From IMG/VR virus record IMGVR_UViG_2541047747_000001: 46,204 nucleotides of DNA, one strand, 5' to 3'. The notes beneath the pieces are model-generated. The model searched no databases. It was not told the DNA's origin and saw only the letters and a program-made list of their open reading frames with translations. Shown here piece after piece: positions 4,001 to 30,975 of the stretch; within the stretch, counting starts at the first letter, position 1, and every line of letters starts with the position of its first letter. The position numbers and the translations under genes are program-made. The DNA comes from a virus (taxonomy: Duplodnaviria; Heunggongvirae; Uroviricota; Caudoviricetes).

Positions 4001-4724
4001 GCTGAGCAGTATTCTGCTGCAGGCTGACCGTATCGCGATGATTACCCCGGAGAATGGCAACACCACGCCGCTGTTTGTGGCGCAGGGGAATCAGCTGTTC
4101 ATGAACGACGTGTTCCTGAAGCGACTGTTTGCGGTGAGCATCACGTCATCCGGCAATCCTCCTACGTTTTCCCTGACGCCGGATGGCAGGCTGGCAGCCC
4201 GCAATGCGGATATCAGTGGAGCCATCACGGCGAATACCGGCACGCTCAATAATGTCACCATTAACGAGAACTGTGTCATCAGAGGGAAACTGTCTGCAAA
4301 CCAGATTGAAGGCGATCTCGTTAAAACAGTGGGTAAGGCTTTCCCCCGTGACTCCCGTGCACCGGAGAGGTGGCCATCAGGGACCATTACCGTCAGGGTT
4401 TATGACGATCAGCCGTTTGACCGGCAAATTGTTATTCCGGCGGTGGCATTCAGCGGTGCCAGACATGAGCGGGAGAATAACGATATTTATTCGTCATGCC
4501 GCCTGATAGTACGGAAAAACGGTGCTGAAATTTATAACCGTACCGCGCTGGATAATACGCTGGTTTACAGTGGTGTTATTGATATGCCTGCTGGTCGCGG
4601 CCACATGACGCTGGAGTTTTCTGTATCAGCATGGTGGGTAAATGGCTGGTATCCCACAGCAAGTATCAGCGATTTGCTGGTTGTTGTGATGAAGAAAGCC
4701 ACTGCAGGCATCACGATTAGCTGA
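1032..4724 (+). CDS. J: tail tip host specificity protein J (central tail fibre)
   Basis: Long ORF; [22 protein letters not shown]-terminus and many conserved blocks shared with lambda J; likely GTG start at 1032 after an AGGAG-like RBS; ORF track starts at 987. Confidence 0.9.
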
Positions 4725-4743
4725 ATTTTATAACCCCAATACG

Positions 4744-4770
4744 GGCGCCAGAAATGGCGCCTTTTTTATT
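4744..4770 (+). terminator. rho-independent terminator after J
   Basis: GGCGCC-agaaat-GGCGCC stem-loop followed by TTTTTTATT. Confidence 0.65.
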
Positions 4771-4791
4771 GCAGAAAAGCGAGAGGTAATT

Positions 4792-5391
4792 ATGCGTAAA
4801 TTATGTGCTGTTATTCTGTCCGCAGTAGTCTGGCTGGTTGCCGCTGGTACGCCAGCGAGCGCAGCAGAGCATCAGTCCACACTAAGCGCCGGGTATCTTC
4901 AGACCCACACTGATATGCCAGGCAGCGATAATCTGAACGGGATTAACGTGAAATACCGTTATGAGTTTACGGACGCGCTGGGGCTGATTACGTCCTTCAG
5001 TTATGCCAATGCTGAGGATGAGCAAAAAACGCACTACAGCGATACCCGCTGGCATGAAGATTCCGTGCGTAACCGCTGGTTCAGCGTGATGGCGGGGCCA
5101 TCTGTACGCGTGAATGAATGGTTCAGTGCTTATGCGATGGCAGGTGTGGCTTACAGCCGTGTGTCGACGTTCTCCGGGGATTATCTCCGCGTAACTGACA
5201 ACAAGGGGAAAACGCACGATGTGCTGACCGGAAGTGATGACGATCGCCACAGCAACACGTCTCTGGCGTGGGGGGCTGGCGTGCAGTTTAACCCGACCGA
5301 ATCCGTGGCCATTGACCTTGCTTATGAAGGTTCCGGCAGTGGTGACTGGCGCACTGACGGTTTCATCGTAGGTGTCGGTTATAAATTCTGA
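4792..5391 (+). CDS. lom: Lom-like outer membrane protein (Ail/Lom family)
   Basis: 199 aa with signal peptide; C-terminal YEGSGSGDWRTDGFIVGVGYKF matches lambda Lom as recalled. Confidence 0.85.
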   Translation: MRKLCAVILSAVVWLVAAGTPASAAEHQSTLSAGYLQTHTDMPGSDNLNGINVKYRYEFTDALGLITSFSYANAEDEQKTHYSDTRWHEDSVRNRWFSVMAGPSVRVNEWFSAYAMAGVAYSRVSTFSGDYLRVTDNKGKTHDVLTGSDDDRHSNTSLAWGAGVQFNPTESVAIDLAYEGSGSGDWRTDGFIVGVGYKF

Positions 5392-5417
5392 TTAGCCAGG
5401 TAACACAGTGTTATGAC

Positions 5418-5455: not shown

Positions 5456-8400
5456 ATGGCAGCAGTAAAAATCTCAGGTGTGCTGAAAGATGGTGCGGGA
5501 AAACCAATACAGAACTGCACTATTCAACTGAAGGCAAAGCGTAACAGCACCACGGTACTGGTGAACACGGTGGCTTCTGAAAATCCGGATGAAGCCGGAC
5601 GTTACAGCATGGATGTTGAGTATGGCCAGTACAGCGTCACCCTGCTGGTTGAAGGTTTTCCGCCTTCACATGCCGGGACCATTACCGTCTATGAAGGTTC
5701 CAGACCAGGTACGCTGAATGATTTTCTCGGTGCCATGACGGAAGATGATGTCATGCCGGAGGCACTGCGCCGCTTTGAGCAGATGGTGGAAGAGGTGTCA
5801 CGTAACGCCTCCGCGGTTGCACAGAATACGGCAGCCGCGAAAAAATCAGCCAGCGATGCCAGTGCATCAGCCAGCGAGGCGGCAACTCATGCAACCGATG
5901 CTGCAGCCTCAGCACGTGCCGCCAGCACGTCAGCCGGACAGGCCGCGTCGTCGGCTCAGTCAGCGTCTTCCAGCGCAGGAACGGCATCGACAAAGGCCCG
6001 TGAAGCAGCAAAAAGTGCTGCTGCTGCAGAGTCATCAAAAAGCGCGGCAGCTACCAGCGCCAGTGCCGCGAAAACGTCAGAAACGAATGCCGCAGCATCA
6101 CAAAAATCGGCAGCCACTTCTGCATCCACAGCGACCACGAAAGCGTCAGAAGCTGCCACCTCGGCACGGGGTGCGGCGGCCTCAAAAGAGGCAGCGAAAT
6201 CTTCAGAAACGAATGCATCATCAAGTGCCAGTAGTGCAGCTTCCTCGGCAACGGCGGCAGGAAATTCCGCGAAGGCGGCAAAAACGTCCGAGACGAACGC
6301 CAGGTCTTCTGAAACAGCAGCGGGACAGAGCGCCTCAGCTGCGGCAGGTTCAAAAACAGCGGCTGCATTATCTGCCAGTGCCGCGTCAACAAGTGCCGGG
6401 CAGGCCTCAGCCAGTGCCACCGCCGCCGGAAAATCGGCAGAAAGCGCCGCATCATCCGCTTCAACAGCCACAACGAAGGCTGGCAAAGCCACTGAGCAAG
6501 CCACTGCAGCAGCGAGGTCTGCTTCTGCAGCAAAAACCTCTGAAACAAATGCAAAGACTTCAGCAGACAATGCTGCTTCCTCTAAGGCGGCAGCCGCATC
6601 GTCAGCCAGTTCAGCGGCGTCATCGGCATCATCTGCGTCTGCTTCAAAAGATGAGGCGACCAGACAAGCGTCAGCAGCGAAAGGTAGTGCCACGACAGCA
6701 ACAACGAAAGCATCAGAGGCGGCAGGCAGTGCGACGGCGGCATCTCAGAGCAAAGTTGCTGCTGAATCCGCGGCAACGCGTGCCGAAACAGCGGCAAAAC
6801 GGGCAGAGGATATTGCATCCGCCGTGGGGCTTGAGGATGCGAGCACGACGAAAAAGGGGATAGTACAGCTCAGCAGTGCAACAAACAGCACCAGTGAAAA
6901 GCTGGCGGCAACGCCAAAGGCAGTTAAAACTGTTAAAGATAGTTCAGTTCAAAAAACTGGCGACACAATGGGAGGGCAGTTAAAAATCAGCACGATAAAT
7001 GCTCTTCGAATATTCAACCAAGCCTTTGGCCTTATTTTTAGGCGTTCCGAAGATTATCTTCATCTTATTCCGACTAATGAAGGGGAGGGGGAAAATGGAG
7101 ACATCGGTTCATTAAGACCATTCTCTATAAACTTAAGATCAGGGTTGGTGTCCATCGGTAATGGACTAAAAGTTGGTGGTAGTGTTACTGGTAATTTGAC
7201 CGGAAACGCAGATACTGCGACCAAGATCAAGACAGCACGTAAGATTGGGGGCGTGGCATTTGATGGATCGGCAGATATCAACTTGCCTGGAGTCAACGCT
7301 ACCGGTAATCAAAACACTACAGGTAATGCTGCGACCGCCACGAAACTTCAGGCAGCCAGAACGATTAACGGTGTGTCATTTGATGGTAGTGCAAATATCA
7401 CATTGACCCCTTCAAATATTGGGGCATTGGCATTAACTGGAGGGACTCTTTCAGGTGGTTTAACTGCTGCTGGTGAGGTTATTTCAAGGTCAGCAAATGG
7501 TCTGCGTATTGCCTATGGCAACTATGGATTCTTTATCCGAAATGATGGATCAAACACATATTTTATGTTGACAGATTCGGGTAACAGTCTTGGTACGCAC
7601 AATAGCTTAAGGCCGTTTATAATTAGTAACCATACTGGCAATGTTACAATTGCAACTAAATTAAACGCGAGTGGTGGTATCACTGGATCTTTATCGGGTA
7701 ATGCAAGCACAGCAACCAAATTGCAAACTGCAAGGACAATTAACGGCGTAAAATTTGACGGCTCGGCAAATATTGAAGCGTTTCCGCCAGGTGTTCCGCT
7801 GCCGTGGCCATCAGATACACCACCTGCAGGTTATGCGATCATGCAGGGGCAGACGTTTGATAAGGCAGCATATCCGAAACTGGCTATTGCCTATCCTTCA
7901 GGTGTTATTCCAGATATGCGCGGCTGGACAATCAAGGGCAAACCCGCCAGTGGCCGGGCCGTATTGTCTCAGGAACAGGACGGCATAAAATCGCACACCC
8001 ACAGCGCCAGCGCATCCAGTACGGATTTGGGGACGAAAACCACATCGTCGTTTGATTACGGCACTAAATCCACGAATAACACCGGGGCGCATACGCACAG
8101 TCTGAGTGGCTCTACGGGGTCTGCCGGTGTTCATACTCATGGTAATGGTATTCGTTGGCCAGGAGGCGGCGGTTCTGCGTTAGCATTTTATGATGGCGGT
8201 GGGTTCACTTATGTCCAGAATTCACAGTATCAAGTAAGCCCGGAGACTTCTTCCTATAGATCGTATTATCAACGTATTCAGACACAGTCAGCAGGTGCTC
8301 ATACCCACTCGCTGTCTGGTACTGCAGCAAGTTCTGGCGCACATGCACATACTGTAGGTATTGGTGCGCATACGCACTCCGTTGCGATTGGTTCACATGG

Positions 8401-8485: not shown

Positions 8486-9069
8486 TGGCATTCAGAATGA
8501 GTGAACAAGCACGGACCATAAAAATTTATAATCTGCTGGCCGGAACTAATGAATTTATTGGTGAAGGTGACGCATATATTCCGCCTCATACAGGTCTGCC
8601 AGCAAACAGTACCGATATTGCACCACCAGATATTCCTGCTGGCTTTGTGGCTGTTTTCAACAGTGATGAGGCATCGTGGCATCTCGTTGAAGACCATCGG
8701 GGTAAAACGGTTTATGACGTAGCGTCAGGGGACGAGTTATTTATTTCTGAACTCGGTCCGTTACCGGAAAATGTTACCTGGTTATCGCCGGAAGGGGAGT
8801 TTCAGAAGTGGAACGGCACAGCCTGGGTGAAGGATACGGAAGCAGAAAAACTGTTCCGGATCCGGGAGGCGGAAGAAACAAAAAACAGCCTGATGCAGGT
8901 AGCCAGCGAGCATATTGCGCCGCTTCAGGATGCTGCAGATCTGGAAATTGCAACAGAGGAAGAAATCTCGTTGCTGGAAGCATGGAAAAAGTATCGGGTA
9001 TTGCTGAACCGTGTTGATACGTCAACTGCACCTGATATTGAGTGGCCTACGAACCCTGTCAGGGAGTAA
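8485..9069 (+). CDS. tfa: tail fibre assembly protein Tfa
   Basis: 194 aa, [42 protein letters not shown] nearly identical to lambda Tfa as recalled; start overlaps stf stop (TAATG). Confidence 0.9.
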
Positions 9070-9509: not shown

Positions 9510-9790
9510 AGTGATTTTTTGGGGCATGCATGGGGCAAAAATATTTGTTGTGGGGCATTTTGGGGCATGATTGGGACACTTTGTTACATATGAACTTTGC
9601 CGATTTTTATATGACATGGAAATACAACGCTTTGATTCTTCTAAATAAAAAATATGCTCTTGGGCGTTCTTTAGTGATTTTTAAAAATTCCGTATCACGC
9701 AGTTAACATGACGGGTATTAAGGATTAACTTACTGATTTTAATAAGCCTCTGATGTCACTTTGGTGACTATGGGGCATCATTGGGACATA
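9510..9790. other. putative attP region with integrase arm-type repeats
   Basis: Four TGGGGCA repeats at 9520-9567 and an 18-bp direct repeat TGGGGCAT(G/C)ATTGGGACA at 9561-9578 and 9771-9788, next to the int 3' end; core crossover site not identified. Confidence 0.45.
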
Positions 9791-11038
9791 ATCTGTCAGC
9801 TTCTGATTCAGCATTGCGATCTGTTCTGCATTGCTGTCAGTCATCCATGCTCCGTATACATTGAATACCATCTGGGCACTTGCATGGCCCATCTGGCTGG
9901 CAATGAAGCTTGGGTTTGCTCCGGCAGATAATGACCAGCACGCATAAGTGTGTCGTGACTGGTATGCCTTTCGATGCCTGATCCCTGCACGCTTAATGGC
10001 TGTTTCCCATGAGTCACCTACAGAATCGACTTTGTAGACAAAACCTACCTGTTCGCTTTTTCTAACCACTTGAGGGTTAAACACGAAAGTACATTCATGG
10101 TTCACTGAACGTCCATATTCACGTAGTTGCACCTTGATGTTGTACTGCTTACCCAGTCTTGTCATTTCAGCCTGATTTTTCAGGACACTGATAGCGGGCT
10201 GGATAAGGTGCACAACCCTGTTTGTGCTTGCTTCAGTTTTCGGTAGAGTGAACTCACCAAGTTTCGTATAATTGCGCCTGATGGTAATTGTTCCTGCCTT
10301 CAGATCGATATCTTCCCAGGCCAGGGAGACCAGTTCACCGTGACGCATTCCTGTGTACACAGCCAATGACCACAGGTTTTTCGTCTGCTGATGTCGGCAA
10401 GCATCTATCAGGCGAATAAATTCGTCACGAGTTAGCGGATCTGGCTCTGCCCTGGCTCTTTTAAGAGGCTTAATTCCCTGGAAGGGATTTGCTTCTAAGT
10501 AACCGTGATCTGCAGCAAACTGAAACATTCCAGCGATTGTCGTCATGTAATAATTTACAGTAACGACGCTCCGTCCTTTTGCTGCTGCTTTGTTTTTCGT
10601 TGAATTCTGATACCCGGTCAGCAAATCTTTCCTGATATACAGCAATTCCTCTTTGGTTACCGATGACACCAGTCTACTGCCTCCAATTTTCGGAACCATC
10701 GTTCTTGCAACGGATTCATAGCGATTGAATGCATTTGCAGAGATTTCCATTCGTTTCAGATCCAGCCACTTTTCTTCAAGTTCCTTCACCGTAATTTCTT
10801 TTTTACTTACCCCAAAAGCCTGAAGGTTGGGGGAGTCAGGGAACTGTGCAGCATAATCAAAGCTTCCTGTGCGGATGGCAAAACATACTGATGTCCGCAG
10901 TTCCCCGGCGATCTTCCTGTTCTTGGCAGTGTCAGGGACACCAAGATTTTCCCTGACACGTTTACCTTTAAAATTAAACCAGATGCGTAATGTGCCGCCG
11001 TGGTTTTCGACGCCTGTTGGATATTTGACTTTATCCAT
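9725..11038 (-). CDS. int: tyrosine-type site-specific integrase with N-terminal arm-binding domain
   Basis: 437 aa; C-terminal catalytic region with R..HxxR..Y context (SRHTYACWSL, GHASAQMVFNVY); position next to xis and attP. Confidence 0.85.
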   Translation of the reverse strand: MDKVKYPTGVENHGGTLRIWFNFKGKRVRENLGVPDTAKNRKIAGELRTSVCFAIRTGSFDYAAQFPDSPNLQAFGVSKKEITVKELEEKWLDLKRMEISANAFNRYESVARTMVPKIGGSRLVSSVTKEELLYIRKDLLTGYQNSTKNKAAAKGRSVVTVNYYMTTIAGMFQFAADHGYLEANPFQGIKPLKRARAEPDPLTRDEFIRLIDACRHQQTKNLWSLAVYTGMRHGELVSLAWEDIDLKAGTITIRRNYTKLGEFTLPKTEASTNRVVHLIQPAISVLKNQAEMTRLGKQYNIKVQLREYGRSVNHECTFVFNPQVVRKSEQVGFVYKVDSVGDSWETAIKRAGIRHRKAYQSRHTYACWSLSAGANPSFIASQMGHASAQMVFNVYGAWMTDSNAEQIAMLNQKLTDYVPMMPHSHQSDIRGLLKSVS

Positions 11039-18720: not shown

Positions 18721-19383
18721 ATGATCATTTCAAGACCAAATATTGATTCTGCAATTTCGGGACGTTACACTGTCTCCGCACCTTATAAAGCGGGTGCCGG
18801 GGGTCGCAGCCCGGAATTGCATACGGCGATATACGACGCGCCAGCGTCTTTTTTATCGTCCGCGCTCACGCACGCCAGAATTATGGTGGGCTGGGCAGGG
18901 GAGCCGAAAGGCTCGCCGGTTTCCGTATGCGCCGGTACTGCGAACCCTGTTCAGTCTGCCACCAGTGAGTTTCGCAGCTCCGGTGGTGGAAGTTATCCAT
19001 TGCATACGGAGGCTGCCATCATGGCTACAGTCCCAACTTCCCCATTCCTCAAAATTGAAGTTGTCAACGGCAAGGCCGTTATTTTCTCCCTGCATGTTGC
19101 CTGCCACTTTAAGCGCATGCACCAGAACATCGTCGACAAAATCGAGTATCTGAACTGCTCACGCGAGTTTTTTACCCGCAATTTCATACCGGGTACTTAT
19201 CACATCTACGGTGACTCCCTGCGTGGTTATTACATCACCCTTGATGGTCTGATGATGCTTCAGCTTGGGTTAAGTCTGCGCACAATGCGGTACTACGAGA
19301 GCTGTATTGAAGCATTCCATGAGGCTGAAACCGTCCAGGGTCACTCCGCGTTCCGTCGTAATCAACGGGAGGTGCACCTATGA
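18721..19383 (+). CDS. Rha-family protein with about 100-aa N-terminal extension (or structured leader plus Rha gene starting near 19021)
   Basis: Rha-like core FLKIEVVNGKAVIFSLHVACHFKRMHQNIVDKIEYL; N-terminal region contains a conserved 61-nt block and an in-frame terminator-like hairpin (18835-18854). Confidence 0.6.
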   Translation: MIISRPNIDSAISGRYTVSAPYKAGAGGRSPELHTAIYDAPASFLSSALTHARIMVGWAGEPKGSPVSVCAGTANPVQSATSEFRSSGGGSYPLHTEAAIMATVPTSPFLKIEVVNGKAVIFSLHVACHFKRMHQNIVDKIEYLNCSREFFTRNFIPGTYHIYGDSLRGYYITLDGLMMLQLGLSLRTMRYYESCIEAFHEAETVQGHSAFRRNQREVHL

Positions 19384-20231
19384 TCCGCCACCAGCATATT
19401 GATTCTGCAATTTCGGGACGTTACACTGTCTCTGCACCTTATAAAGCGGGTGCCGGGCGTGGAAACCCGAAATTCAATATAGAGCACAACCGCGCTCATG
19501 CGGTTTTTTCGTGTCATGAGCATCGTTACGCCCAAATTATGGTGGGGCGTGCAGGGCCAACTTCGGTTGGGCCGGGTTCTATGTTGACCGGTATTTCCAC
19601 CCCTGTACGTCTCACCACCTATATGGTCGTGGAAAGCCTTGGTGGTGAGTTCATTGAATTCAACATAGGGGCTGTCACCATGACTACTCTCCCAACCCAA
19701 TCTCACCCTGAAATCACGATTATCAATGGTCGCGTTGTCACCACATCTCTTGCAGTAGCTAATTACTTTACTAAACGGCATGAGCGGGTTTTAGATAGAA
19801 TTAGAAACCTCGAATGTTCCGCTGAATTTACTGAACACAATTTTGTGTTAAGTGAATACACCGACGCATCAGGCCGCAAACTACCTTGCTATCAAATCAC
19901 CCGCGATGGCTTCGCGTTCCTTGCCATGGGCTTCACTGGTAAACGTGCTGCCCGGTTCAAAGAGGCATACATCAACGCCTTTAACCTGATGGAGAAGAGT
20001 TTATCAGGTGCCGATACGTCTGATATGTCAGCTGTCGCACGAAACGCCAGAGGCGTATACCTGCATTTGCGTGAAATCCATCAAATCTGGACAAGCCAGC
20101 TTTATCCAATGCTTAAGGCCGTTGAATCTCCGCTGGCTAGCAAACTGTACGACCGTGTTGGTGATGCTGTTTTTGGCGCTGCACTTGTTGATTCCAGGCT
20201 GAATGGTTCTGACAAGGAGGTTCGCCCATGA
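19380..20231 (+). CDS. Rha-family protein, paralogue of 18721..19383, same N-terminal extension architecture
   Basis: Rha-like core ITIINGRVVTTSLAVANYFTKRHERVLDRIRNL...QITRDGFAFLAMGFTGKRAARFKEAYINAFN; ATG overlaps the upstream stop. Confidence 0.65.
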   Translation: MIRHQHIDSAISGRYTVSAPYKAGAGRGNPKFNIEHNRAHAVFSCHEHRYAQIMVGRAGPTSVGPGSMLTGISTPVRLTTYMVVESLGGEFIEFNIGAVTMTTLPTQSHPEITIINGRVVTTSLAVANYFTKRHERVLDRIRNLECSAEFTEHNFVLSEYTDASGRKLPCYQITRDGFAFLAMGFTGKRAARFKEAYINAFNLMEKSLSGADTSDMSAVARNARGVYLHLREIHQIWTSQLYPMLKAVESPLASKLYDRVGDAVFGAALVDSRLNGSDKEVRP

Positions 20232-20422
20232 TTAGTTACGAAATCATCATCTCCACTACGGAATACAGAAACGATGTATCAGTTCGCACGGATGTATCTG
20301 TCTGGCACCGTCGCTATAAATCCAGAAAAACAGCGGAACTGAAAGCGGCAGAGATGTGTGAAACCATCTCAATGAAAGGTAGCCCGGTTAAATACGTAAC
20401 TACGGCGGAGGTGCGTCCATGA
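20228..20422 (+). CDS. hypothetical small protein
   Basis: 64-aa ORF with start overlapping the upstream stop and stop overlapping the next start. Confidence 0.45.
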   Translation: MISYEIIISTTEYRNDVSVRTDVSVWHRRYKSRKTAELKAAEMCETISMKGSPVKYVTTAEVRP

Positions 20423-20643
20423 TCCGCCACATCGTTAATTCCCTGTATCACCGATACAACCGTTGCCCCCGAGTGGGGCAGTGGTTTACCACCAGCAACG
20501 GCCTCGTTCTGCGGGTTTGCCTGGTCAATGCAGAAAGTCAGAAGGTTGTCTGCCAGGTGCAGGGGCGTACTTATACCCTGAGTTACCCGCTGGTGGCGTT
20601 TCAGTCCGGAAAAATGTTTAAGCGTCTGGGAGGTGTCGTATGA
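20419..20643 (+). CDS. hypothetical small protein
   Basis: 74-aa ORF coupled on both sides (ATGA overlaps). Confidence 0.45.
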   Translation: MIRHIVNSLYHRYNRCPRVGQWFTTSNGLVLRVCLVNAESQKVVCQVQGRTYTLSYPLVAFQSGKMFKRLGGVV

Positions 20644-23873: not shown

Positions 23874-24127
23874 ACAACCAGACAATGACTTTTACCCCTG
23901 AGCAATTACGTAAACAGGCACAGGAAATGTTGCGGCAGGCGGAACAACTGGAAAAAACAGGTGTAACAAAAGATGCCATTCGTCGGGATATGGTGCCAGC
24001 GCTCAGGGAACTGATGCAGGCAAAACACCGTGCACAAAAAGCAGTGGATGAGCTGGTGGATTGTGTGGCAGAGCTGGAAACCAGAGTTGGTAAGTTTGAA
24101 AAACTGGTGCAGGAGGTACTGCGCTGA
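23870..24127 (+). CDS. hypothetical coiled-coil protein
   Basis: 85-aa ORF coupled between the helicase and Q genes. Confidence 0.45.
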   Translation: MNNQTMTFTPEQLRKQAQEMLRQAEQLEKTGVTKDAIRRDMVPALRELMQAKHRAQKAVDELVDCVAELETRVGKFEKLVQEVLR

Positions 24128-24495
24128 TGCGTGATATGTACGAAGTTTTAGATCGTTGGGGGGCCTGGGCTGCAGCAGATAACAGTGGTGTGGACTGGCA
24201 GCCGATAGCAGCAGGCTTCAAGGGGCTTTTACCACACGGTAAAAAGTCACGTCTCCAGTGTGATGATGACGAAGGTATCATGATAGACGGTTGTGTGGCT
24301 CGGTTGCGAAAGTATAAACCCGAAGAGTATGAGTTGATCATTGCTCACTTTGTTATTGGTATCTCATTACGCGCTATTGCTAAAAAACGGAAATGTTCAG
24401 ATGGAACAATACGGAAAGAGATGCAAACAGCAATGGGGTTTATTGATGGCTGCTTGTCATTTTTCATTTACTACAATGACTTAAGTTCTATGTAA
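24127..24495 (+). CDS. Q: late-gene antitermination protein Q-like
   Basis: 122 aa; N-terminal VLDRWGAWAA and C-terminal HTH-like ISLRAIAKKRKCSDGTIRKEMQTA; lies upstream of the lysis module. Confidence 0.6.
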   Translation: MRDMYEVLDRWGAWAAADNSGVDWQPIAAGFKGLLPHGKKSRLQCDDDEGIMIDGCVARLRKYKPEEYELIIAHFVIGISLRAIAKKRKCSDGTIRKEMQTAMGFIDGCLSFFIYYNDLSSM

Positions 24496-24558
24496 AATCG
24501 TTCTACTTTCCCAACTTTTATGTGTATATAATACCAGGATAAAGTAACGGAGAATCTT

Positions 24559-25599
24559 GTGAACATTCAGGCAGTAGACATTTTTTGTGGTGCGGGGGGC
24601 TTAACTTTTGGGCTAAAAAAAGCCGGGATTGAGGTTTCTCATGGTATTGATATTGATGAATCCTGCCGTTTTGCTATTGAGAGCAATAATCCTTTAACGC
24701 AGTTCATTAATCAGTCAGTTACAGAACTGCAATCCTGCGATGTGTCTGCTATGTTCAAGGAAGGAAATATTAGATTGCTTGCTGGATGTGCTCCTTGCCA
24801 ACCGTTTTCCAAGTATCGTAATCCAAATAGCCGTAAAGACGATACAAAGTGGCGTTTGTTATATGAGTTTCAAAGGCTTGTAAGTGATGTAATGCCAGAG
24901 CTTGTGACGATGGAGAATGTTCCTCAACTTAGAAACCATAAGGTTTTTGAAGGGTTTGTTAGTGCATTAAAGACTCTTGGATATCATTTGTGGTACGACG
25001 TTGTAAGATGTTCTGAGTATGGCTTACCTCAAAATAGACGTAGATTAATTCTAATTGGTTCCCAATTGGGGCCGATCAGCCTTGATCAAAAAAAAGTTAG
25101 CCGTAAAGTTACTGTTAAGGATGCTATTGGTAGGTTGCCAAAAGTAGGGGCAGGTGAGAAGCTGGAAAGCGATCCCTTGCATCGTTCGCCTAAATTGATG
25201 GATATCAATCTTAAACGAATCATGCATTCTTTACCTGGTGGTACGTGGGATGACTGGCCTGAAGAAATTAGAGCAGACTGTCATAAAAAGAATTCAGGTG
25301 CTACCTATAAAAGCGTTTATGGACGGATGGTTTGGGACGATACTAGCCCTACGATAACTACCCAGTGTTATGGATATGGAAATGGACGATTTGGCCATCC
25401 TGAGCAAAATCGCGCCATAACTTTGCGTGAAGCTGCGATTTTGCAATCCTTTCCAATGGATTATAAATTCCTTGACAAGGAGACGCCTTTTTCATTCCAA
25501 AAATTGGGGACAATGATTGGAAATGCTGTTCCCCCTATAATTGGTCAGATAATAGGGGAAACATTTATCAGACATGTTGAGGGGATAAATACCCGTTAG
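24559..25599 (+). CDS. DNA (cytosine-5)-methyltransferase
   Basis: Motif I FCGAGG, motif IV PCQPFS, ENV and QNRRR motifs; GTG start with GGAG RBS. Confidence 0.85.
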   Translation: MNIQAVDIFCGAGGLTFGLKKAGIEVSHGIDIDESCRFAIESNNPLTQFINQSVTELQSCDVSAMFKEGNIRLLAGCAPCQPFSKYRNPNSRKDDTKWRLLYEFQRLVSDVMPELVTMENVPQLRNHKVFEGFVSALKTLGYHLWYDVVRCSEYGLPQNRRRLILIGSQLGPISLDQKKVSRKVTVKDAIGRLPKVGAGEKLESDPLHRSPKLMDINLKRIMHSLPGGTWDDWPEEIRADCHKKNSGATYKSVYGRMVWDDTSPTITTQCYGYGNGRFGHPEQNRAITLREAAILQSFPMDYKFLDKETPFSFQKLGTMIGNAVPPIIGQIIGETFIRHVEGINTR

Positions 25600-26257
25600 A
25601 GGTAATATAATTTTCTGTTGAGTTGATTAATAAACGCAAATATAGATCAATTCTTTCTGACCTCGATTTGACTTCTTCTAAAGGGTCTATTTGACCTTTT
25701 TTAGAAAAGCTGGTACTTCCATGTGCCAGCTCATTTCTGATATCTTTAAGTAAATCTAAGTCAACACCATTTCTACACTCTGGTGAGTTTGCAACAGTTA
25801 TTCCGTAAGCTTGTGTTATTTTGTGCAATACAGACTTGCAAACATTACCATTGAATTCTTTACGTATGTTTAATGAGGCTGAAATGATCCTTTTAGATAT
25901 ATCGGAACCAATTTTTTGATAAAGAGATTTTCCCGATTCATTATCTGAAATGATACGGTGCAAGATATTTACTTGGAATTTCTCCCTGAGTGATGCGTAA
26001 TTTACTTCATTATCTTGCAAATGGTCATAAATTGACTCAATGCATCCTCTGGCAGTGTTTTCAACCTGATTGTACAGCATCATGTGCACGGATGATTTTA
26101 AAATGTTAACCCTAAGGGTATTTGATTCTATTTCATCTTTATGCGTTTGCTGATCTAACTGCTGAGTCTGAGCCTCTAAAGATGACGCAAGAGAAAGCAA
26201 TTCCATAATATCTCTTGCTCTTTCTTCGTATTCATCTCTTAAATCAATCAAACTCAT
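25568..26257 (-). CDS. HEPN-domain protein (putative RNase effector), second gene of DUF262-HEPN cassette
   Basis: 229 aa; C-terminal R-x4-H motif RNELAHG; start 2 bp after the DUF262 gene stop; 3' end overlaps the convergent C5-methyltransferase by 32 bp. Confidence 0.65.
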   Translation of the reverse strand: MSLIDLRDEYEERARDIMELLSLASSLEAQTQQLDQQTHKDEIESNTLRVNILKSSVHMMLYNQVENTARGCIESIYDHLQDNEVNYASLREKFQVNILHRIISDNESGKSLYQKIGSDISKRIISASLNIRKEFNGNVCKSVLHKITQAYGITVANSPECRNGVDLDLLKDIRNELAHGSTSFSKKGQIDPLEEVKSRSERIDLYLRLLINSTENYITSNGYLSPQHV

Positions 26258-26259
26258 AG

Positions 26260-27417
26260 TTACATTCCTAATAATTTATCTTTGACATAAAATATTCTGT
26301 TTTTGAGTTGGCTGGTGTTGTTGGCACTATCAGCAGTAACTATGGTTTCAAATTCCTCCCCAAACAGCCAGTCTCCTACAGGAATAACCGGAGCCTGTAG
26401 ATGTGGATTGGCTTTTAAGGCAAGAGCAGTTCCCACTGCTATGGCTTCGTATCTAGCACGGGGGGTGGTTTTGCTTGTTGGTGTCTTTTTAAACCCCATA
26501 GGGAAATGAGCATCTACAAAAGCAAGCATGCTTTCAAAATCATGTTTAAATTTGTCTACATCTTGTTGTGTGACCCTTTCGGCCTGAACATTAAGATAAT
26601 TGTCAATAAAAGGAGCGACATAACCCTTATAATTTTCTAAATCATTTAAGTATGCAAAAAATCTCAAAACTAACTCACGATGATCGCCATTCGAACGTTT
26701 CCGATCTGATAATGGAGCTAGACTAGCGAAAAGTGGATTTGTTGAGCAAGGAGTCACAACATCCCTATAGAAAATTGAAGTGGCCGCATCTGAACCATGT
26801 CTAACCTCCATCGCTTCCAGTCTCTTAACACCTGAATTTATTCTTTCGAATAAATCTCTTCTATGCTGCTCCTCAACATCACCTTTCAATTCAATAAATC
26901 TTAGTGATGCCCTTAAAAATCGCCTCTGGCGGCTAGCCAAAAGATCTGAAAATTTGAAGCCCTCTAAACTTTTGAGTTCTTTTAAGTCTTTCAATTCAAA
27001 CTGATTGTTCCAAAAGTAGTAAATTGAGCGAATCCTTTGTGAACCGTCAATAATTTCTACACGACCATCCAACTCAGGATCTTCATTAAATACGTCGGAG
27101 ATGTAGAGGTACGGGATTGGAAAATCTAATAATATACTTTCGATGAATCGAGAGGCTGTTTTGATATCCCATTTGTAATCGCGTTGATAATCAGGAATAA
27201 AAAGTTCGTTTTTGTCAGTTTCAAGATTATTGCCATACTTTTGTACAATTAATTCAACGGTCCATTCACGTACGTTGTATCCAATATTTCTCTGAGCAAG
27301 CCTAATCTCGTTGTCGGCAGAAGTGACCAAGGCTGCAATTTCAGCTTTTTTTCTATTTTTCGCGTTTTCATCTTGAATCTGAGCAAGCTCTTCTTTGAGT
27401 TCTTTGAGTGTGGTCAT
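26260..27417 (-). CDS. DUF262 (ParB-like nuclease/NTPase fold) domain protein
   Basis: 385 aa; signature blocks FIPDYQRDYKWD and IIDGSQR; AAGGAA RBS before the start. Confidence 0.7.
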   Translation of the reverse strand: MTTLKELKEELAQIQDENAKNRKKAEIAALVTSADNEIRLAQRNIGYNVREWTVELIVQKYGNNLETDKNELFIPDYQRDYKWDIKTASRFIESILLDFPIPYLYISDVFNEDPELDGRVEIIDGSQRIRSIYYFWNNQFELKDLKELKSLEGFKFSDLLASRQRRFLRASLRFIELKGDVEEQHRRDLFERINSGVKRLEAMEVRHGSDAATSIFYRDVVTPCSTNPLFASLAPLSDRKRSNGDHRELVLRFFAYLNDLENYKGYVAPFIDNYLNVQAERVTQQDVDKFKHDFESMLAFVDAHFPMGFKKTPTSKTTPRARYEAIAVGTALALKANPHLQAPVIPVGDWLFGEEFETIVTADSANNTSQLKNRIFYVKDKLLGM

Positions 27418-27868: not shown

Positions 27869-28018
27869 AGGCTTTTTTATTTGTGGTAAATGGGCGGCTG
27901 GTGGGTGTTAGGGGCACCCACCAGCCATCTGCTCATGCGTTGGGTTCACAAGCAAACCTCAGGCCCACTGCTTTGCGCAAAAGCAGAATGAGCCTATCAG
28001 AGACAGGCTTAATGATCC

Positions 28019-29068
28019 ATGCTTAATACTGTAAAAATATCCAGTTGTGAGTTAATCAACGCCGACTGCCTGGAATTTATCCGGTCGTTACCCGAAAATT
28101 CTGTTGACCTGATAGTCACGGACCCGCCGTACTTTAAAGTGAAGCCTGAGGGCTGGGATAACCAGTGGAAGGGCGACGATGATTACCTGAAGTGGCTGGA
28201 CCAGTGTCTGGCGCAGTTCTGGCGGGTGCTGAAACCTGCCGGAAGTCTTTACCTGTTCTGTGGTCATCGCCTGGCATCTGATATCGAAATCATGATGCGT
28301 GAACGCTTCAGTGTGCTGAACCATATTATCTGGGCGAAGCCGTCCGGACGCTGGAACGGATGCAACAAGGAAAGCCTGCGGGCGTATTTCCCCGCCACAG
28401 AGCGCATTCTGTTCGCGGAACATTATCAGGGGCCGTATCGTCCGAAAGATGCCGGGTATGCGGCGAAGGGCAGTGCACTGAAACAGCATGTGATGGCCCC
28501 GCTGATTTCTTACTTTCGTGATGCGCGCGCGGCCCTGGGGATAACGGCAAAACAGATTGCAGATGTCACAGGAAAGAAAAACATGGTGTCGCACTGGTTC
28601 AGTGCCAGTCAGTGGCAGCTACCGAACGAAAGCGATTATCTGAAATTACAGTCGCTGTTTGCCCGGGTGGCAGAAGAGAAACATCAGCGCGGTGAACTGG
28701 AAAAGCCCCACCACCAGCTGGTGGATACGTATACGTCACTGAACCGGCAGTATGTGGAGCTGCAGAGTGAATATAAGCATCTGCGGCGGTATTTTGGTGT
28801 GACGGCGCAGGTGCCGTACACGGATGTATGGACACATAAACCGGTGCAGTTCTATCCCGGGAAACATCCGTGCGAAAAACCGGCAGAAATGCTGCAGCAG
28901 ATAATCAGCGCAAGCAGTCGTCCGGGTGACCTGGTTGCAGATTTTTTTATGGGCTCAGGTTCAACGGTAAAAGCGGCACTGGCGCTCGGGCGTCGTGCGA
29001 TTGGCGTTGAACTGGAGACCGGACGTTTTGAGCAGACAGTCAGGGAAGTTCAGGATTTAATCGTTTGA
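28019..29068 (+). CDS. DNA N6-adenine methyltransferase (DPPY motif)
   Basis: 349 aa; motif IV LIVTDPPY and SAM-binding region FFMGSGST. Confidence 0.8.
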   Translation: MLNTVKISSCELINADCLEFIRSLPENSVDLIVTDPPYFKVKPEGWDNQWKGDDDYLKWLDQCLAQFWRVLKPAGSLYLFCGHRLASDIEIMMRERFSVLNHIIWAKPSGRWNGCNKESLRAYFPATERILFAEHYQGPYRPKDAGYAAKGSALKQHVMAPLISYFRDARAALGITAKQIADVTGKKNMVSHWFSASQWQLPNESDYLKLQSLFARVAEEKHQRGELEKPHHQLVDTYTSLNRQYVELQSEYKHLRRYFGVTAQVPYTDVWTHKPVQFYPGKHPCEKPAEMLQQIISASSRPGDLVADFFMGSGSTVKAALALGRRAIGVELETGRFEQTVREVQDLIV

Positions 29069-29117
29069 AACGGATGAGATTGCAGAATTAATTACGCACC
29101 ATTATTATTCTGCTCCC

Positions 29118-29193
29118 GGCCCTTTAGCTCAGTGGTGAGAGCGAGCGACTCATAATCGCCAGGTCGCTGGTTCAAATCCAGCAAGGGCCACCA
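29118..29193 (+). tRNA. tRNA with CAT anticodon (Ile2/lysidine type, ileX-like, or Met)
   Basis: Manual fold: 7-bp acceptor stem GGCCCTT/AAGGGCC, D-stem GCTC/GAGC, anticodon loop CTCATAA, T-loop TTCAAAT, encoded CCA. Confidence 0.85.
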
Positions 29194-29200
29194 TCACATA

Positions 29201-29277
29201 CCGCCATTAGCTCATCAGGAAAGAGCGCCAGCCTTCGAAGCTGGTTGCGCGGAGTTCGGGTCCCCGAAGGCGGTCCA
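29201..29277 (+). tRNA. tRNA-Arg (anticodon TCG)
   Basis: Manual fold: anticodon stem CCAGC/GCTGG, loop CTTCGAA, encoded CCA; one mismatch each in acceptor and T stems. Confidence 0.65.
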
Positions 29278-29290
29278 TTATCTGTATCCT

Positions 29291-29367
29291 GCGTTGTTAG
29301 CTCAGCCGGACAGAGCAATTGCCTTCTAAGCAATCGGTCACTGGTTCGAATCCAGTACAACGCGCCA
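29291..29367 (+). tRNA. tRNA-Arg (anticodon TCT)
   Basis: Manual fold: perfect acceptor stem GCGTTGT/ACAACGC, anticodon loop CTTCTAA, T-loop TTCGAAT, encoded CCA. Confidence 0.85.
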
Positions 29368-29382
29368 CACTTATTTTCCCTG

Positions 29383-29407
29383 GCTCGCTTTTGCGGGCTT
29401 TTTTTTA
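29383..29407 (+). terminator. rho-independent terminator after the tRNA cluster
   Basis: GCTCGC-tttt-GCGGGC followed by a T8 run. Confidence 0.6.
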
Positions 29408-29606
29408 AATGTCTCACAATTCAGGCGGTTGACTGTTGTCTGGTTTGCGGGGAGTTTGTTAAAAGAAACTGGCATGGTGAATCCCCCTGTGCGGAGGGGC
29501 AATCAGCGAGTAGGTATATGGGATAATCGCGGATTCAGGTGCTGGTACTGAATTCACCGGGAGGCACCCGGCACCATGCAGTTGACTGAAACCATGTATA
29601 CTCTCA

Positions 29607-29636
29607 GGCCCCACGCACATGTGTTGGGGCCTTTTT
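29607..29636 (+). terminator. rho-independent terminator upstream of the lysis genes
   Basis: GGCCCCA...TGGGGCC stem followed by TTTTT; an oppositely oriented hairpin with A8 follows at about 29641-29670. Confidence 0.55.
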
Positions 29637-29807
29637 ACATGCAAAAAAAAGCCCGCATATGGATACGGGCGGCAAGGAACAAAAAACGTGAAGTGATCTA
29701 TTCAGCCAGTGGATAATACCCTGACGTTACCATATTGCGCAATCGCGCATTCTTTCTTTTTCGCTCCCCTTATAACTACGCCATCCGTTCGCTGCGGAGG
29801 TGAGGCT

Positions 29808-30023
29808 ATGAAATCCATGGATAAAATTTCAACGGGCATTGCCTACGGCACCTCCGCAGGCAGTGCTGGCTACTGGTTTTTACAGTGGCTTGATCAGGTC
29901 AGTCCGTCACAGTGGGCTGCGATTGGTGTACTGGGGAGTCTGGTTCTGGGCTTCCTGACATATCTGACTAACCTGTATTTCAAAATCAGAGAGGACCGTC
30001 GTAAGGCTGCGCGGGGAGAGTAA
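29808..30023 (+). CDS. S: class II holin/antiholin with dual start (phage 21 S-like pinholin)
   Basis: 71 aa [28 protein letters not shown]... matches S21 as recalled; M1-K-S-M4 dual start; GGAGG RBS. Confidence 0.85.
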
Positions 30024-30027
30024 TTCA

Positions 30028-30378
30028 ATGATTCAAAACTATGAACTGATTGTGAAAGGGATCCGCAATTTTGAGAATAAAGTTACGGTAACTTTAGCGT
30101 TACGGGACAAAAAACGCTTTGACGGTGAAATTTTTGACCTGGACATCTCGCTGGACCGTGTTGAAGGTGCCGCGCTGGGGTTTTATGAGGCAGCAGCCAG
30201 AAGGAGCATCAGACAGGTCTTCCTGGATGTTGCTGCCGGGTTATGTGAAGGGGATGAGCAGTCGCCGGAAAAGCGCCCCGTAATTTTAGAGGCGCAGAAT
30301 GTGTGGATAACCTACAAAGGAAAGCTACCAGGAAGAATTACTGGTTCTCTGAAGACTCCTCCGGAATCACAACCTTAA
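30028..30378 (+). CDS. hypothetical protein between holin and endolysin
   Basis: 116-aa ORF starting 5 bp after the holin stop; no recognisable motif. Confidence 0.5.
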   Translation: MIQNYELIVKGIRNFENKVTVTLALRDKKRFDGEIFDLDISLDRVEGAALGFYEAAARRSIRQVFLDVAAGLCEGDEQSPEKRPVILEAQNVWITYKGKLPGRITGSLKTPPESQP

Positions 30379-30441
30379 GTCACTGACCAGAACAGATAAA
30401 CCTGTCCGTGGGCAGAAACCGATAAATCCTGATAAATATCC

Positions 30442-30975
30442 ATGAACGCAAAAATCAGATACGGCCTGTCGGCTGCCGTTCTGGCACTGATTGCCGTCGG
30501 TGCGCCCGCGCCTGATATTCTCGACCAGTTTCTGGATGAAAAAGAAGGTAACCACACAACGGCATACCGCGATGGTTCCGGCATCTGGACCATCTGCCGT
30601 GGTGCCATCATGGTGGATGGCAAACCTGTCGTTCCGGGCATGAAGTTGTCGAAGGAAAAATGCGACCAGGTTAACGCCATTGAGCGTGATAAAGCGCTGG
30701 CGTGGGTGGAGAAAAACATCAGAGTGCCGCTGACCGAACCCCAGAAAGCGGGGATCGCGTCATTCTGTCCGTACAACATTGGCCCCGGTAAGTGTTTCCC
30801 GTCGACGTTTTATAAGCGGCTGAATGCCGGTGATCGTAAGGGGGCATGCGAAGCGATTCGCTGGTGGATTAAGGATGGTGGGCGCGATTGCCGCATACGT
30901 TCAAATAACTGCTATGGGCAAGTTATTCGTCGTGACCAGGAAAGCGCATTAGCCTGTTGGGGGATAGAGCAGTGA
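30442..30975 (+). CDS. R: SAR endolysin (T4-type lysozyme fold with N-terminal signal-anchor-release segment)
   Basis: N-terminal hydrophobic segment [16 protein letters not shown] then E-x8-D-x5-T triad context ([16 protein letters not shown]). Confidence 0.85.

Follow-up and report, generated by a model that had tools for sequence, protein, structure and literature searches.

Upstream of the lysis cassette in this Caudoviricetes genome (the window, i.e. the whole stretch of 46,204 nucleotides that was analysed), a DNA methyltransferase gene is followed by three tRNA genes and by an interval of ~440 bp that leads up to the holin gene. The Q antiterminator gene (24127–24495, plus strand; Pfam PF06530, E 3.3e-47) lies 4.6 kb upstream of the tRNA cluster, and the prophage of strain FAH, which is identical to the window, is annotated as ‘antiterminator Q family protein’ at this position. 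[quoted passage not shown] A class II holin of the P21 S type (29808–30023, plus strand; PF04971, E 8.6e-36), with the Shine-Dalgarno sequence GGAGGTGAGG at 29796–29805 on the same strand, heads the lysis cassette, in which YdfR-family, lysozyme, and Rz genes come next. These boundaries confirm the placement of the tRNAs between methyltransferase and holin in the original prediction, and the position is that seen in Stx phages, after Q and the methyltransferase and ahead of both stx slot and lysis genes. The interval beyond the tRNAs had been described as holding only terminator-like hairpins. Both named hairpins are indeed terminator-like (29382–29399 followed by a T-run, and 29607–29631 followed by U5), but the interval is not empty: it contains a full-length match to the STnc100 small RNA (sRNA) family and a second, convergent sRNA unit on the minus strand, so that the suggestion of a short RNA is borne out by two units.

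ARAGORN finds exactly three tRNA genes, all on the plus strand and with the anticodons CAT, TCG, and TCT that had been predicted. The first (29118–29193; Rfam 72.5 bits) has a CAU anticodon and is ileZ-like, of the tRNA-Ile2 type; it is identical at 76/76 positions to ileZ of Stx2a_1447 and 100% identical also to ileZ of Nil3, and PGAP predicts a tRNA-Ile in genomes with an identical copy. The C4-G69 and C5-G68 pairs, which we take to be TilS determinants, are present in its sequence. The third gene, an argO-like tRNA-Arg (UCU; 29291–29367; Rfam 70.1 bits), is likewise identical to argO of Stx2a_1447 (77/77) and to that of Nil3. The middle gene, an argN-like tRNA-Arg (UCG; 29201–29277), reaches only 43.4 bits in Rfam, versus 56 bits for the copies in PhiR49_2 and the Stx2 phage, and its fold has a z-score of −0.45. 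It carries an A6.A67 mismatch in the acceptor stem and an A58-to-G change in the T-loop, both unique to the window among four aligned phages. These private changes, at conserved positions (A58 and the acceptor stem), are probably damaging, and the gene looks impaired. The cluster ends in an intrinsic terminator (29382–29406, plus strand; terminator scan) that is conserved in all phages compared. A candidate promoter for the operon (TTGCAG, 17 nt, TATTAT; 29080–29108, plus strand) has a TATTAT that is invariant in 4/4 aligned phages, and we infer rather than detect it, since its -35 falls below the threshold of the scan tool.

With its own promoter-like site and terminator, the tRNA operon would supply decoders for AUA, CGA/CGG, and AGA. 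Compared with 43 host core genes, the phage uses these and related codons more often (odds ratios: AUA 2.0, AGA 5.8, AGG 6.5, CGA 2.3, CGG 3.0; all p<1e-4). A benefit of the tRNAs to the phage may follow from this 2- to 6-fold higher codon use, which itself is observed directly. The expected link of rare codons to late genes holds in part: AUA, AGA, and CGA are over-represented across the phage relative to host core genes, but the late genes are the class least enriched in rare codons. Cargo genes (HEPN/DUF262/C5-MTase) are rich in AGA and AUA.

The tRNA terminator runs into a cargo junction (29402–29410, placed by alignment) that holds stx2AB in Stx2 phages and other cassettes elsewhere. The stx2AB indel point lies exactly between 29405 and 29410: window positions 28000–29405 correspond to positions 3999–5406 of an Stx2 phage locus (L002), the window from 29410 onward corresponds to that locus from 6742 onward, and a 1335-bp stx2AB cassette lies in between in the latter. 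The same breakpoint carries a 640-bp AT-rich ORF cassette in two other loci (L009 and L054) and inserts of ~750 bp in two more (L072 and L047), and it recurs in a locus from which the tRNA cluster is absent (L080). In 4/4 Stx2 loci, stx2A is found at a constant offset from the STnc100 sRNA. Searches of the window for stx DNA and protein remnants (blastn and tblastn, E up to 10) returned none, with chance-level matches only and none of these in the interval, which upholds the earlier statement that the tRNAs are not followed by toxin cargo. As no stx remnant occurs at a junction that is used in other phages, sequence comparison identifies the junction in the window as a recurrent cargo site in its unoccupied state, and the proposal of an empty cargo site likewise stands. 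Alignment shows a recurrent recombination junction directly after the tRNA terminator, which holds stx2AB in Stx2 phages, other morons elsewhere, and nothing here. To its right, a conserved box (CTCACAATTCAGG..TTGACT; 29413–29434, plus strand) is shared by the window, PhiR49_2, the Stx2 phage, and most E. coli-type copies, and is a possible upstream promoter element of STnc100.

The STnc100-family gene (29443–29642, plus strand) matches Rfam RF02076 with 139 bits (gathering 47) over model positions 1–206 of 206; beyond it, a permissive Rfam scan of 29350–29900 gave only chance-level matches, including Esr41 at 14 bits. Among 137 copies of the family, Q genes are found upstream and holins or NanS-p downstream, and in Stx2 phages the family sits 75 nt after stx2B (see also PMC12370729). 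In EDL933, 11 copies are expressed, one of which has been validated by Northern blot (PMC5331693), and EcOnc27/sRNA103 of EHEC, which is STnc100, is Hfq-bound (PMC12711010). In divergent copies, a canonical promoter (TTGACA-18-TAAATT) ends 8 nt before the structure. The window has degenerate hexamers (CTGGTT/AAGAAA) at this position, and transcription of its STnc100 may therefore be weak or depend entirely on read-through. The number of GGA motifs, considered as CsrA binding sites, does not exceed chance expectation. PasD, a related RNA that we compared by its seed only, uses UGUGAG, which lies in the 5′ leader before the structured domain (PMC8550237 supplement); by inspection, 29410–29642 contains no TGTGAG. 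Relatives are expressed in lysogens and Hfq-bound (PMC5331693, PMC12711010). The STnc100 RNA, ending at its own terminator, would most likely act in trans on host and phage mRNAs.

The convergent unit (29643–29742, minus strand) was delineated by a terminator, conserved hexamers, and homology. Its -35 (TTGCGC, 29742–29737) and -10 (TATTAT, 29718–29713) are separated by 18 nt, and across 21 sources both hexamers and the distance between them are kept, whereas the spacer sequence varies. A seed-like CCUUGCC (29677–29671) precedes a terminator found by the terminator scan (29670–29651, with U8 to 29643), and the fold of the RNA is stable (z = -4.3). The unit is homologous to the EPEC sRNA E2348C_1409.E2348C_1408.IGR, known from Hfq RIL-seq, and to EcOnc08/21/42 of EHEC. 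According to the literature, the seed of the EPEC homologue base-pairs with a GGCAAGG motif that occurs in several mRNAs, among them cfa, dppA, and tir. This motif is complementary to the CCUUGCC seed in the window, and the window sRNA, as a member of the EcOnc08/21/42 family, would pair with GGCAAGG-containing mRNAs in the same way.

Taken together, 29080–29807 very probably represents the lysis- or late-region leader of a lambdoid E. coli prophage, built from three stacked self-contained RNA units and an unoccupied cargo junction. The terminators of these units would keep constitutive transcripts out of the holin gene in the lysogen, and upon induction Q-modified RNA polymerase arriving from upstream would read through all of them, a step that we adopt from established lambdoid biology.

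What kind of RNA is STnc100? The predicted fold comprises, all on the plus strand, helix P1 (29472–79/29572–79), hairpin P2 (29484–88/29495–99), pseudoknot strands at 29502–08 and 29540–46, hairpin Y (29531–38/29548–55), hairpin P5 (29557–61/29567–71), and the terminator (29607–31 with U5 at 29632–36). In the alignment, 83% of helix cells are paired versus 71% in shuffles (0/500 shuffles), and helix covariation is 0.349 versus 0.137 in shuffled and at most 0.109 in slid helices. Tested at fixed columns of a MAFFT alignment, the pseudoknot receives only moderate support, with 51.6% paired versus 42.6% in shuffles and a nearly equal value for a +1 slide; because the register of the duplex shifts between subgroups, a register-free permutation test is the stronger evidence. 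The core of STnc100 is thus predicted to contain a pseudoknot that has covariation support and is missing in the Rfam consensus, and the same fold is found across Enterobacterales. The conserved part of STnc100 is almost wholly structured, pseudoknot included, which is atypical of a seed-type Hfq sRNA. We raise tentatively, and hold to be possible rather than likely, that the core is a compact pseudoknotted domain instead of a simple seed-type sRNA, that it may bind a protein or ligand or act in cis on late or lysis transcription, and that the conserved upstream box may be an exchange boundary for stx and other morons. As modelled, such a domain would have five elements, with P1 as the closing helix, the two hairpins P2 and Y, a pseudoknot between loop and junction, and the invariant hairpin CCGGG-AGGCA-CCCGG, and from sequence it appears to be kept at the head of the lysis cassette in prophages of many Enterobacterales genera.

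Did the junction ever hold cargo? A former stx or other moron could have been lost from this lineage by precise replacement through flanking homologous modules. The tRNAs and methyltransferase are 92–94% identical to those of Stx2 phages, with two tRNAs identical, and lambdoid mosaics swap modules at such boundaries. We nevertheless consider a loss unlikely, as a stx remnant is found at no level and the same clean junction is present in PhiR49_2, Nil3, and hundreds of non-STEC genomes; the junction itself does not reveal gain versus loss.

It is also doubtful, to a slightly greater degree, that the STnc100 domain is mainly a cis-acting leader, either riboswitch-like or a protein-dependent attenuator, that controls the holin or nanS-p instead of acting in trans. 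Terminated riboswitch leaders have often been catalogued first as sRNAs, and the order of elements would suit one, with a promoter, a compact domain that is pseudoknotted and nearly invariant at its junction nucleotides, a terminator, and a gene ~200–300 nt further on. However, additional terminators usually come before the holin, copies occur in tandem and beside different genes (including a repressor-linked subgroup), homologues are Hfq-bound, the related PasD has trans targets, and an alternative anti-terminator pairing was not identified.

A further reading, in which the STnc100 unit is the Q-dependent PR'-qut-tR' region and its RNA a prematurely terminated late transcript, like lambda 6S RNA or StxS of 933W, is very improbable. 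The unit does lie between Q and holin, and in divergent copies the structure is preceded directly by a strong promoter, whose -35/-10 spacer has a recurring GAATG motif, and is followed by a terminator. When this hypothesis was tested on 14 compact Q-to-holin loci, however, a separate promoter (TTGAAA-16-GATAAT at 10/12, or TTGACT-18-TATGCT) was found 45–50 nt after the Q stop, with a terminator 70–100 nt later, as expected of a PR'-tR' pair, and STnc100 formed a second cassette further downstream. As this separate promoter-terminator pair adjoins Q, we reject STnc100 as the PR'-tR' late leader. Its copies moreover follow all three unrelated Q families, occur in tandem arrays, and are located beyond stx2 in Stx2 phages, where the late promoter of stx2 adjoins Q. 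In the window, the STnc100 unit is 4.9 kb from Q and is not the first promoter-terminator unit downstream of it. A perfect TATAAT is present just downstream of Q (24527–24532, plus strand), with no terminator near it, and PR' of this phage could not be placed confidently.

The original prediction also stated that ORFs in the interval do not exceed about 25 codons; in mechanical terms this is incorrect, as frames of 40, 46, 43, 61, and 45 codons overlap it, although none of the small ORFs looks coding. That the interval encodes a small protein, from the 46-codon plus-strand ORF (29576–29716) or the 61-codon minus-strand ORF (29459–29644), is barely credible and was rejected on the grounds that the Stx2-phage copy does not conserve the frame and that substitutions are of the RNA type: both ORFs exist, the former is annotated in PhiR49_2, a partial pseudo-CDS is called on the minus strand by PGAP, and one EDL933 STnc100 copy carries ribosome footprints (PMC5331693), but the plus-strand frame runs across the sRNA terminator and gives way to an unrelated frame of 18 codons in the Stx2-type copy, substitutions preserve RNA helices instead, and PGAP itself marks its minus-strand call as an incomplete fragment.

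The leader of stacked RNA units is not confined to this phage. Of 5,426 complete E. coli genomes, 648 carry the interval at a coverage of at least 80%, and several copies are 100% identical. The earlier interpretation as an empty cargo site with short RNAs stands, but the interval is also an ordinary conserved intergenic region. Both sRNAs represent families known from EHEC, EPEC, and Salmonella, and the arrangement of three tRNAs, an empty junction, and two sRNAs is common, ordinary, and already known. For annotation, this means that the region ahead of the holin that looks ‘blank’ in many E. coli prophages contains two sRNA genes, which standard pipelines either miss or mistake for protein fragments. 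With regard to Stx-phage biology, the window provides a clean unoccupied junction, and the stx2AB cassette can be seen to sit between the tRNA terminator and STnc100. Variants in the leader of the STnc100 sRNA have recently been linked to how O157:H7 infection turns out clinically (PMC12711010). If confirmed, the pseudoknotted fold would change the way to study an RNA that ranks among the most abundant prophage ‘sRNAs’ in enterobacteria.

Several known systems resemble parts of this locus. The ileZ-argN-argO cluster of Stx2 phages (933W type; Stx2a_1447, AP012536) has the same anticodons, order, methyltransferase flank, and terminator, but in the window no stx2AB follows and the argN-like copy differs at several conserved positions. 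STnc100 corresponds to EcOnc27/sRNA103 of EHEC and is related to PasD of EPEC, with which it shares the prophage site between Q and the lysis genes and the possession of its own terminator; compared with the Stx2-phage copy, the window gene has ~80% identity in the 5′ part, whereas the variable insert and the terminator differ. Like the lambda 6S RNA and StxS leaders, STnc100 is a short terminated RNA between Q and the lysis genes that would be read through by Q-modified polymerase, yet those leaders are the Q-proximal unit and STnc100 is not, another pair filling that role in compact relatives. The minus-strand unit has in common with the EPEC IGR sRNA and EcOnc08/EcOnc21/EcOnc42 its position, its orientation convergent with STnc100, the -35, -10, body, seed CCUUGC, and terminator. 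Overall identity to the EPEC sRNA is 73%, and the latter is adjoined by a NanS-p-like gene where the window unit is adjoined by the holin. The EPEC annotation spans 182 nt, while the conserved promoter predicts ~65 nt, and the 5′ end of the window RNA is uncertain. Finally, lambdoid morons such as stx, bor, lom, and nanS-p likewise come with their own terminator and, for the window units at least in relatives, a promoter, and show the same presence/absence polymorphism at fixed junctions between conserved phage genes. Lambdoid morons carry protein genes, whereas the cargo of the window is RNA, in the form of tRNAs and sRNAs.

The tRNA genes of the window stand in a setting shared with Stx2-converting phages. 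ARAGORN finds exactly three in the whole 46-kb sequence, all on the + strand, with anticodons CAT (29118-29193), TCG (29201-29277) and TCT (29291-29367) and Rfam tRNA-model scores of 72.5, 43.4 and 70.1 bits, respectively; in genomes carrying the identical sequence, PGAP annotates the CAU gene as tRNA-Ile. The cluster is preceded by a candidate operon promoter (TTGCAG, 17 nt, TATTAT; 29080-29108, + strand), whose -10 element is invariant in four phages, and closed by a strong + strand terminator at 29382-29406. Upstream lie an N6-adenine methyltransferase gene (28019-29068, 349 aa) and, 4.6 kb from the tRNAs, a Q antiterminator gene (24127-24495; PF06530, E 3e-47), with a C5 cytosine methyltransferase gene, a minus-strand HEPN-nuclease/DUF262 pair and a small ORF in between. 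Downstream, a class II holin gene of the P21 S type (29808-30023, 71 aa, PF04971) is followed by YdfR-family, lysozyme and Rz genes, so the original prediction was correct in placing the tRNAs between Q and the lysis genes. By megablast against 50,697 phage records, the tRNA block is matched in 321, in the main Stx2-converting phages with annotated ileZ, argN and argO. The order in one of these, Stx2a_1447 (AP012536), is Q, two minus-strand genes, a small ORF, the methyltransferase, ileZ-argN-argO, stx2A and stx2B. In a four-way alignment the CAU and UCU tRNAs are base for base those of the Stx2 phage and of the comparison phage Nil3. The UCG tRNA has an A6.A67 acceptor mismatch and a T-loop A58-to-G substitution, both at conserved positions, and a D-loop change, all found in the window only, which explain its low Rfam score (43 bits versus 56 bits in relatives); judged by these substitutions, this argN-like tRNA-Arg(UCG) may be a decaying gene.

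What distinguishes the window from the Stx2 phage at this position? Using 28000-30500 as blastn query, window 28000-29405 matches 3999-5406 of the Stx2a_1447 locus (L002) at 94% identity and window 29410-29500 matches 6742-6832 at 80%, and the extra 1,335 bp present in the phage are made up of stx2A, stx2B and the stx2 promoter region. It follows that the toxin cassette is an indel, placed precisely at the boundary between the tRNA terminator's T-run and a conserved box (CTCACAATTCAGG..TTGAC) that precedes the small RNA gene STnc100. The offset of stx2A from this sRNA is equal in all four Stx2 loci sampled. Homology to the window breaks at the same junction in other phages also: two loci (L009, L054) have an AT-rich cassette of 640 bp that contains a 118-aa ORF, two (L072, L047) carry inserts of ~750 bp, and four (L022, L040, L055, L076) have a first STnc100 copy and a small terminated unit before a second STnc100 copy, while L080 is without the tRNA cluster itself (junction 29091 / 29403). 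Searches of the window at both DNA and protein level revealed no stx-like segment. Because the same breakpoint recurs with various inserts and the window lacks stx similarity, the proposal of an empty cargo site is borne out, and the view that the window carries an unoccupied allele of a recurrent cargo junction is well supported; the junction is compatible both with an ancestor that once held cargo there and with one that never did. The conserved box to its right holds CUCACA (29413-29418), the motif of RIL-seq targets of the PasD seed (UGUGAG), which may be coincidence.

The interval between the tRNAs and the holin gene is not devoid of genes. An Rfam gathering-threshold scan identifies a full-length STnc100 (RF02076) at 29443-29642 (139 bits versus a cut-off of 47, E 1e-30). 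Both hairpins that the original prediction had named terminator-like are so, one closing the tRNA operon and the other, at 29607-29636, being the terminator of STnc100, and its guess of a short RNA is right twice over, as a convergent sRNA is present as well. Its statement that the interval holds no ORF above about 25 codons does not stand, since there are ORFs of 40-61 codons, none of which looks coding. The family is also present in the comparison phage PhiR49_2 (140 bits) and, in the Stx2 phage, 75 nt downstream of stx2B (154 bits). STnc100 has been described as a multi-copy prophage sRNA with 11 expressed copies in EDL933, one confirmed by Northern blot (PMC5331693). The copy following stx2B is the Hfq-bound EcOnc27/sRNA103, whose 5'-part variants are among the features predicting HUS in O157:H7 (PMC12711010). 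STnc100 has been detected in STEC outer-membrane vesicles (PMC12370729), and common ancestry with EPEC PasD has been argued in a 2026 preprint (10.64898/2026.05.13.724894). In strain FAH, PGAP annotates the tRNAs and the holin gene and neither sRNA. A partial PGAP pseudo-CDS ("incomplete hypothetical protein") lies opposite STnc100 (window 29459-29644, minus strand; 20363-20521 in the FAH prophage locus L004), and a 46-aa ORF in the PhiR49_2 annotation crosses the STnc100 terminator; both appear to be annotation errors at the sRNA locus.

The anatomy of STnc100 resembles that of a late promoter, leader and tR', as in lambda 6S RNA or StxS, which raises the question whether it is such a late-leader unit. 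Among 120 viral loci bearing the invariant core CACCGGGAGGCACCCGGCACC, a textbook promoter (TTGAC-N, 18 nt, TAAATT) is found in many of the divergent copies, such as those of Klebsiella phages and Fels-1, where it ends exactly 8 nt ahead of the invariant GGTGAAT at the start of the structure. Genes for Q antiterminators, with all three Pfam families represented, lie upstream of these copies, and holin genes lie downstream. However, STnc100 is not that unit. The 14 compact Q-to-holin loci examined have a separate promoter (e.g. TTGAAA-16-GATAAT, 10/12) 45-50 nt past the Q stop, with a terminator 70-100 nt further on; the STnc100 unit forms a second cassette downstream, and a further terminator often stands between it and the holin gene. 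On this evidence STnc100 behaves like an autonomous RNA moron within the late leader. In some phages other sRNA genes (isrI) adjoin it.

Within the window a perfect TATAAT follows the Q stop at 24527-24532 and the C5 methyltransferase gene starts at 24559; no terminator was found near this TATAAT (24496-24560), and neither the late promoter nor the tR' belonging to this phage could be located. At the STnc100 promoter site the hexamers are degenerate in the window (CTGGTT/AAGAAA) and in other E. coli Stx-type copies, including the Stx2 phage (CTGTCA/AAAAAT), so the window's copy may be only weakly transcribed. Canonical STnc100 promoters (L010, L026, L070, L073, L107 and others) have in common GGAATG/TGAATG in the -35/-10 spacer, unusual for a plain sigma-70 promoter, and this motif might be a protein-binding site. 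Copy number and context also vary: one locus (L064, 4349-8555) has a tandem array with six Rfam hits, and several E. coli phages carry pairs 484 bp apart (L055, 6983-7660; L022, L040, L076) in which the first STnc100 matches that of the window without any difference as far as the closing helix. A divergent subgroup (L005, L007, L008, L016, L017 and others) combines the same invariant core with another first hairpin (GCGGC type); its members are found close to S24 (LexA/CI-like) repressor genes, not to Q, and the subgroup goes undetected by the Rfam STnc100 model at gathering threshold.

Comparison of non-redundant copies, drawn from viral contigs and from GTDB genomes spanning many genera of Enterobacterales, indicates that the STnc100 core (29472-29579) forms a covariation-supported pseudoknot. 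The core comprises a closing helix P1 (29472-79 with 29572-79), hairpins P2 (29484-88 with 29495-99) and Y (29531-38 with 29548-55), a conserved GCGG and an invariant hairpin P5, and the loop of hairpin Y complements the segment directly after P2. The complementary strands differ between phages (AUCAGCG/UGCUGGU in the window, CUGGUGU/ACACCGG in the Stx2 phage, CCAGUC/GACUGG in Klebsiella phages), with 76 distinct duplexes among 99 non-redundant cores. In a register-free test on these cores the longest complementary run averages 5.61 nt, versus 3.98 ± 0.10 nt for loops paired with the segments of other copies (maximum 4.30 in 500 permutations) and 3.56 nt for a control segment of the same RNA. 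In a 52-sequence MAFFT alignment the whole fold has 83.0% of cells paired versus 71.3% when shuffled (0/500) and a covariation of 0.349 versus 0.137 shuffled and at most 0.109 slid; helix Y reaches 91.6% pairing, and 7 of its 8 pairs show compensatory changes. The pseudoknot helix alone is 51.6% paired versus 42.6 ± 1.8% shuffled (0/500), and a +1 slide scores almost as well, owing to register differences among the subgroups. The Rfam STnc100 consensus contains no pseudoknot, and the 2026 preprint (10.64898/2026.05.13.724894) used RNAalifold, which cannot predict pseudoknots. Of the whole locus, only this fold might be worth pursuing further.

Back to back with the STnc100 terminator, a terminator scan finds a strong minus-strand terminator (29670-29651, then U8), upstream of which are minus-strand promoter hexamers TTGCGC (29742-29737) and TATTAT (29718-29713), 18 nt apart. 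Hexamers and spacing are kept in 21 collected loci, in which the spacer sequence varies and the transcript body is conserved, and the predicted RNA folds well (z = -4.3). It aligns with the sRNA "E2348C_1409.E2348C_1408.IGR" of the EPEC Hfq RIL-seq supplement (NC_011601, minus strand, 1444797-1444978, prophage PP6), promoter hexamers, CCUUGCC and terminator included. That supplement gives EcOnc08/EcOnc21/EcOnc42 as the EHEC homologues of the EPEC sRNA and lists among its targets the cfa 5'UTR (767 chimeras), dppA and tir; the motif common to the targets is GGCAAGG/GGCAGGG, to which CCUUGCC (29677-29671, minus strand) is the complement. The 5' end is uncertain, giving a length of about 64-65 nt by the conserved promoter versus 182 nt by the EPEC annotation. 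The EPEC locus is built like the window's: Q, tRNA-Ile, tRNA-Arg, an IS element, STnc100 (75.5 bits), the convergent sRNA and a NanS-p-like gene, then class II holin, YdfR and lysozyme.

Codon supply, the usual explanation for these tRNAs, fits the codon excess of the phage. Between 39 window genes (12,558 codons) and 43 annotated core genes (14,652 codons) of strain FAH, which bears the identical prophage, frequencies per 1000 are 8.0 versus 4.0 for AUA (odds ratio 2.0), 7.8 versus 1.4 for AGA (5.8), 5.7 versus 0.9 for AGG (6.5), 5.4 versus 2.3 for CGA (2.3) and 10.5 versus 3.5 for CGG (3.0), with p<1e-4 for all five. The excess is largest in early genes and in the cargo genes (C5 methyltransferase, HEPN, DUF262: AUA 16, AGA 19 per 1000) and smallest in late genes (AUA 5.7, AGA 5.2 per 1000); the suggested link of rare codons to late genes, the class least enriched for AUA and AGA, is therefore unsupported.

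The cargo block between Q and the N6 methyltransferase (24559-27417), with the C5 cytosine methyltransferase on the + strand and the HEPN-like nuclease/DUF262 pair on the minus strand, is probably a defence system, and no other genes of the phage are as rich in AUA and AGA. Elsewhere, Rfam identifies two tandem isrK + C4-antisense RNA modules (18778-18966 and 19434-19622) before ash/Rha-family genes, so that this lambdoid prophage has an antisense immunity module of the P1/P7 type in duplicate. Rfam also gives a full-length match to IS009 (220 bits, 8828-9026) at the end of the tail-fibre region.

Finally, window 29100-29830 has a partial match in 3,989 of 5,426 complete E. coli genomes and a match over at least 80% of its length in 648, and several human isolates carry it at 100% identity. 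Strain FAH has the entire prophage integrated beside yecE, and the window is a circular permutation of that prophage, with tail genes at both ends and the integrase at 9725-11038. All components belong to already described families in an arrangement common in E. coli, and the locus is a good example of a toxin-free Stx-locus allele rather than a new system.
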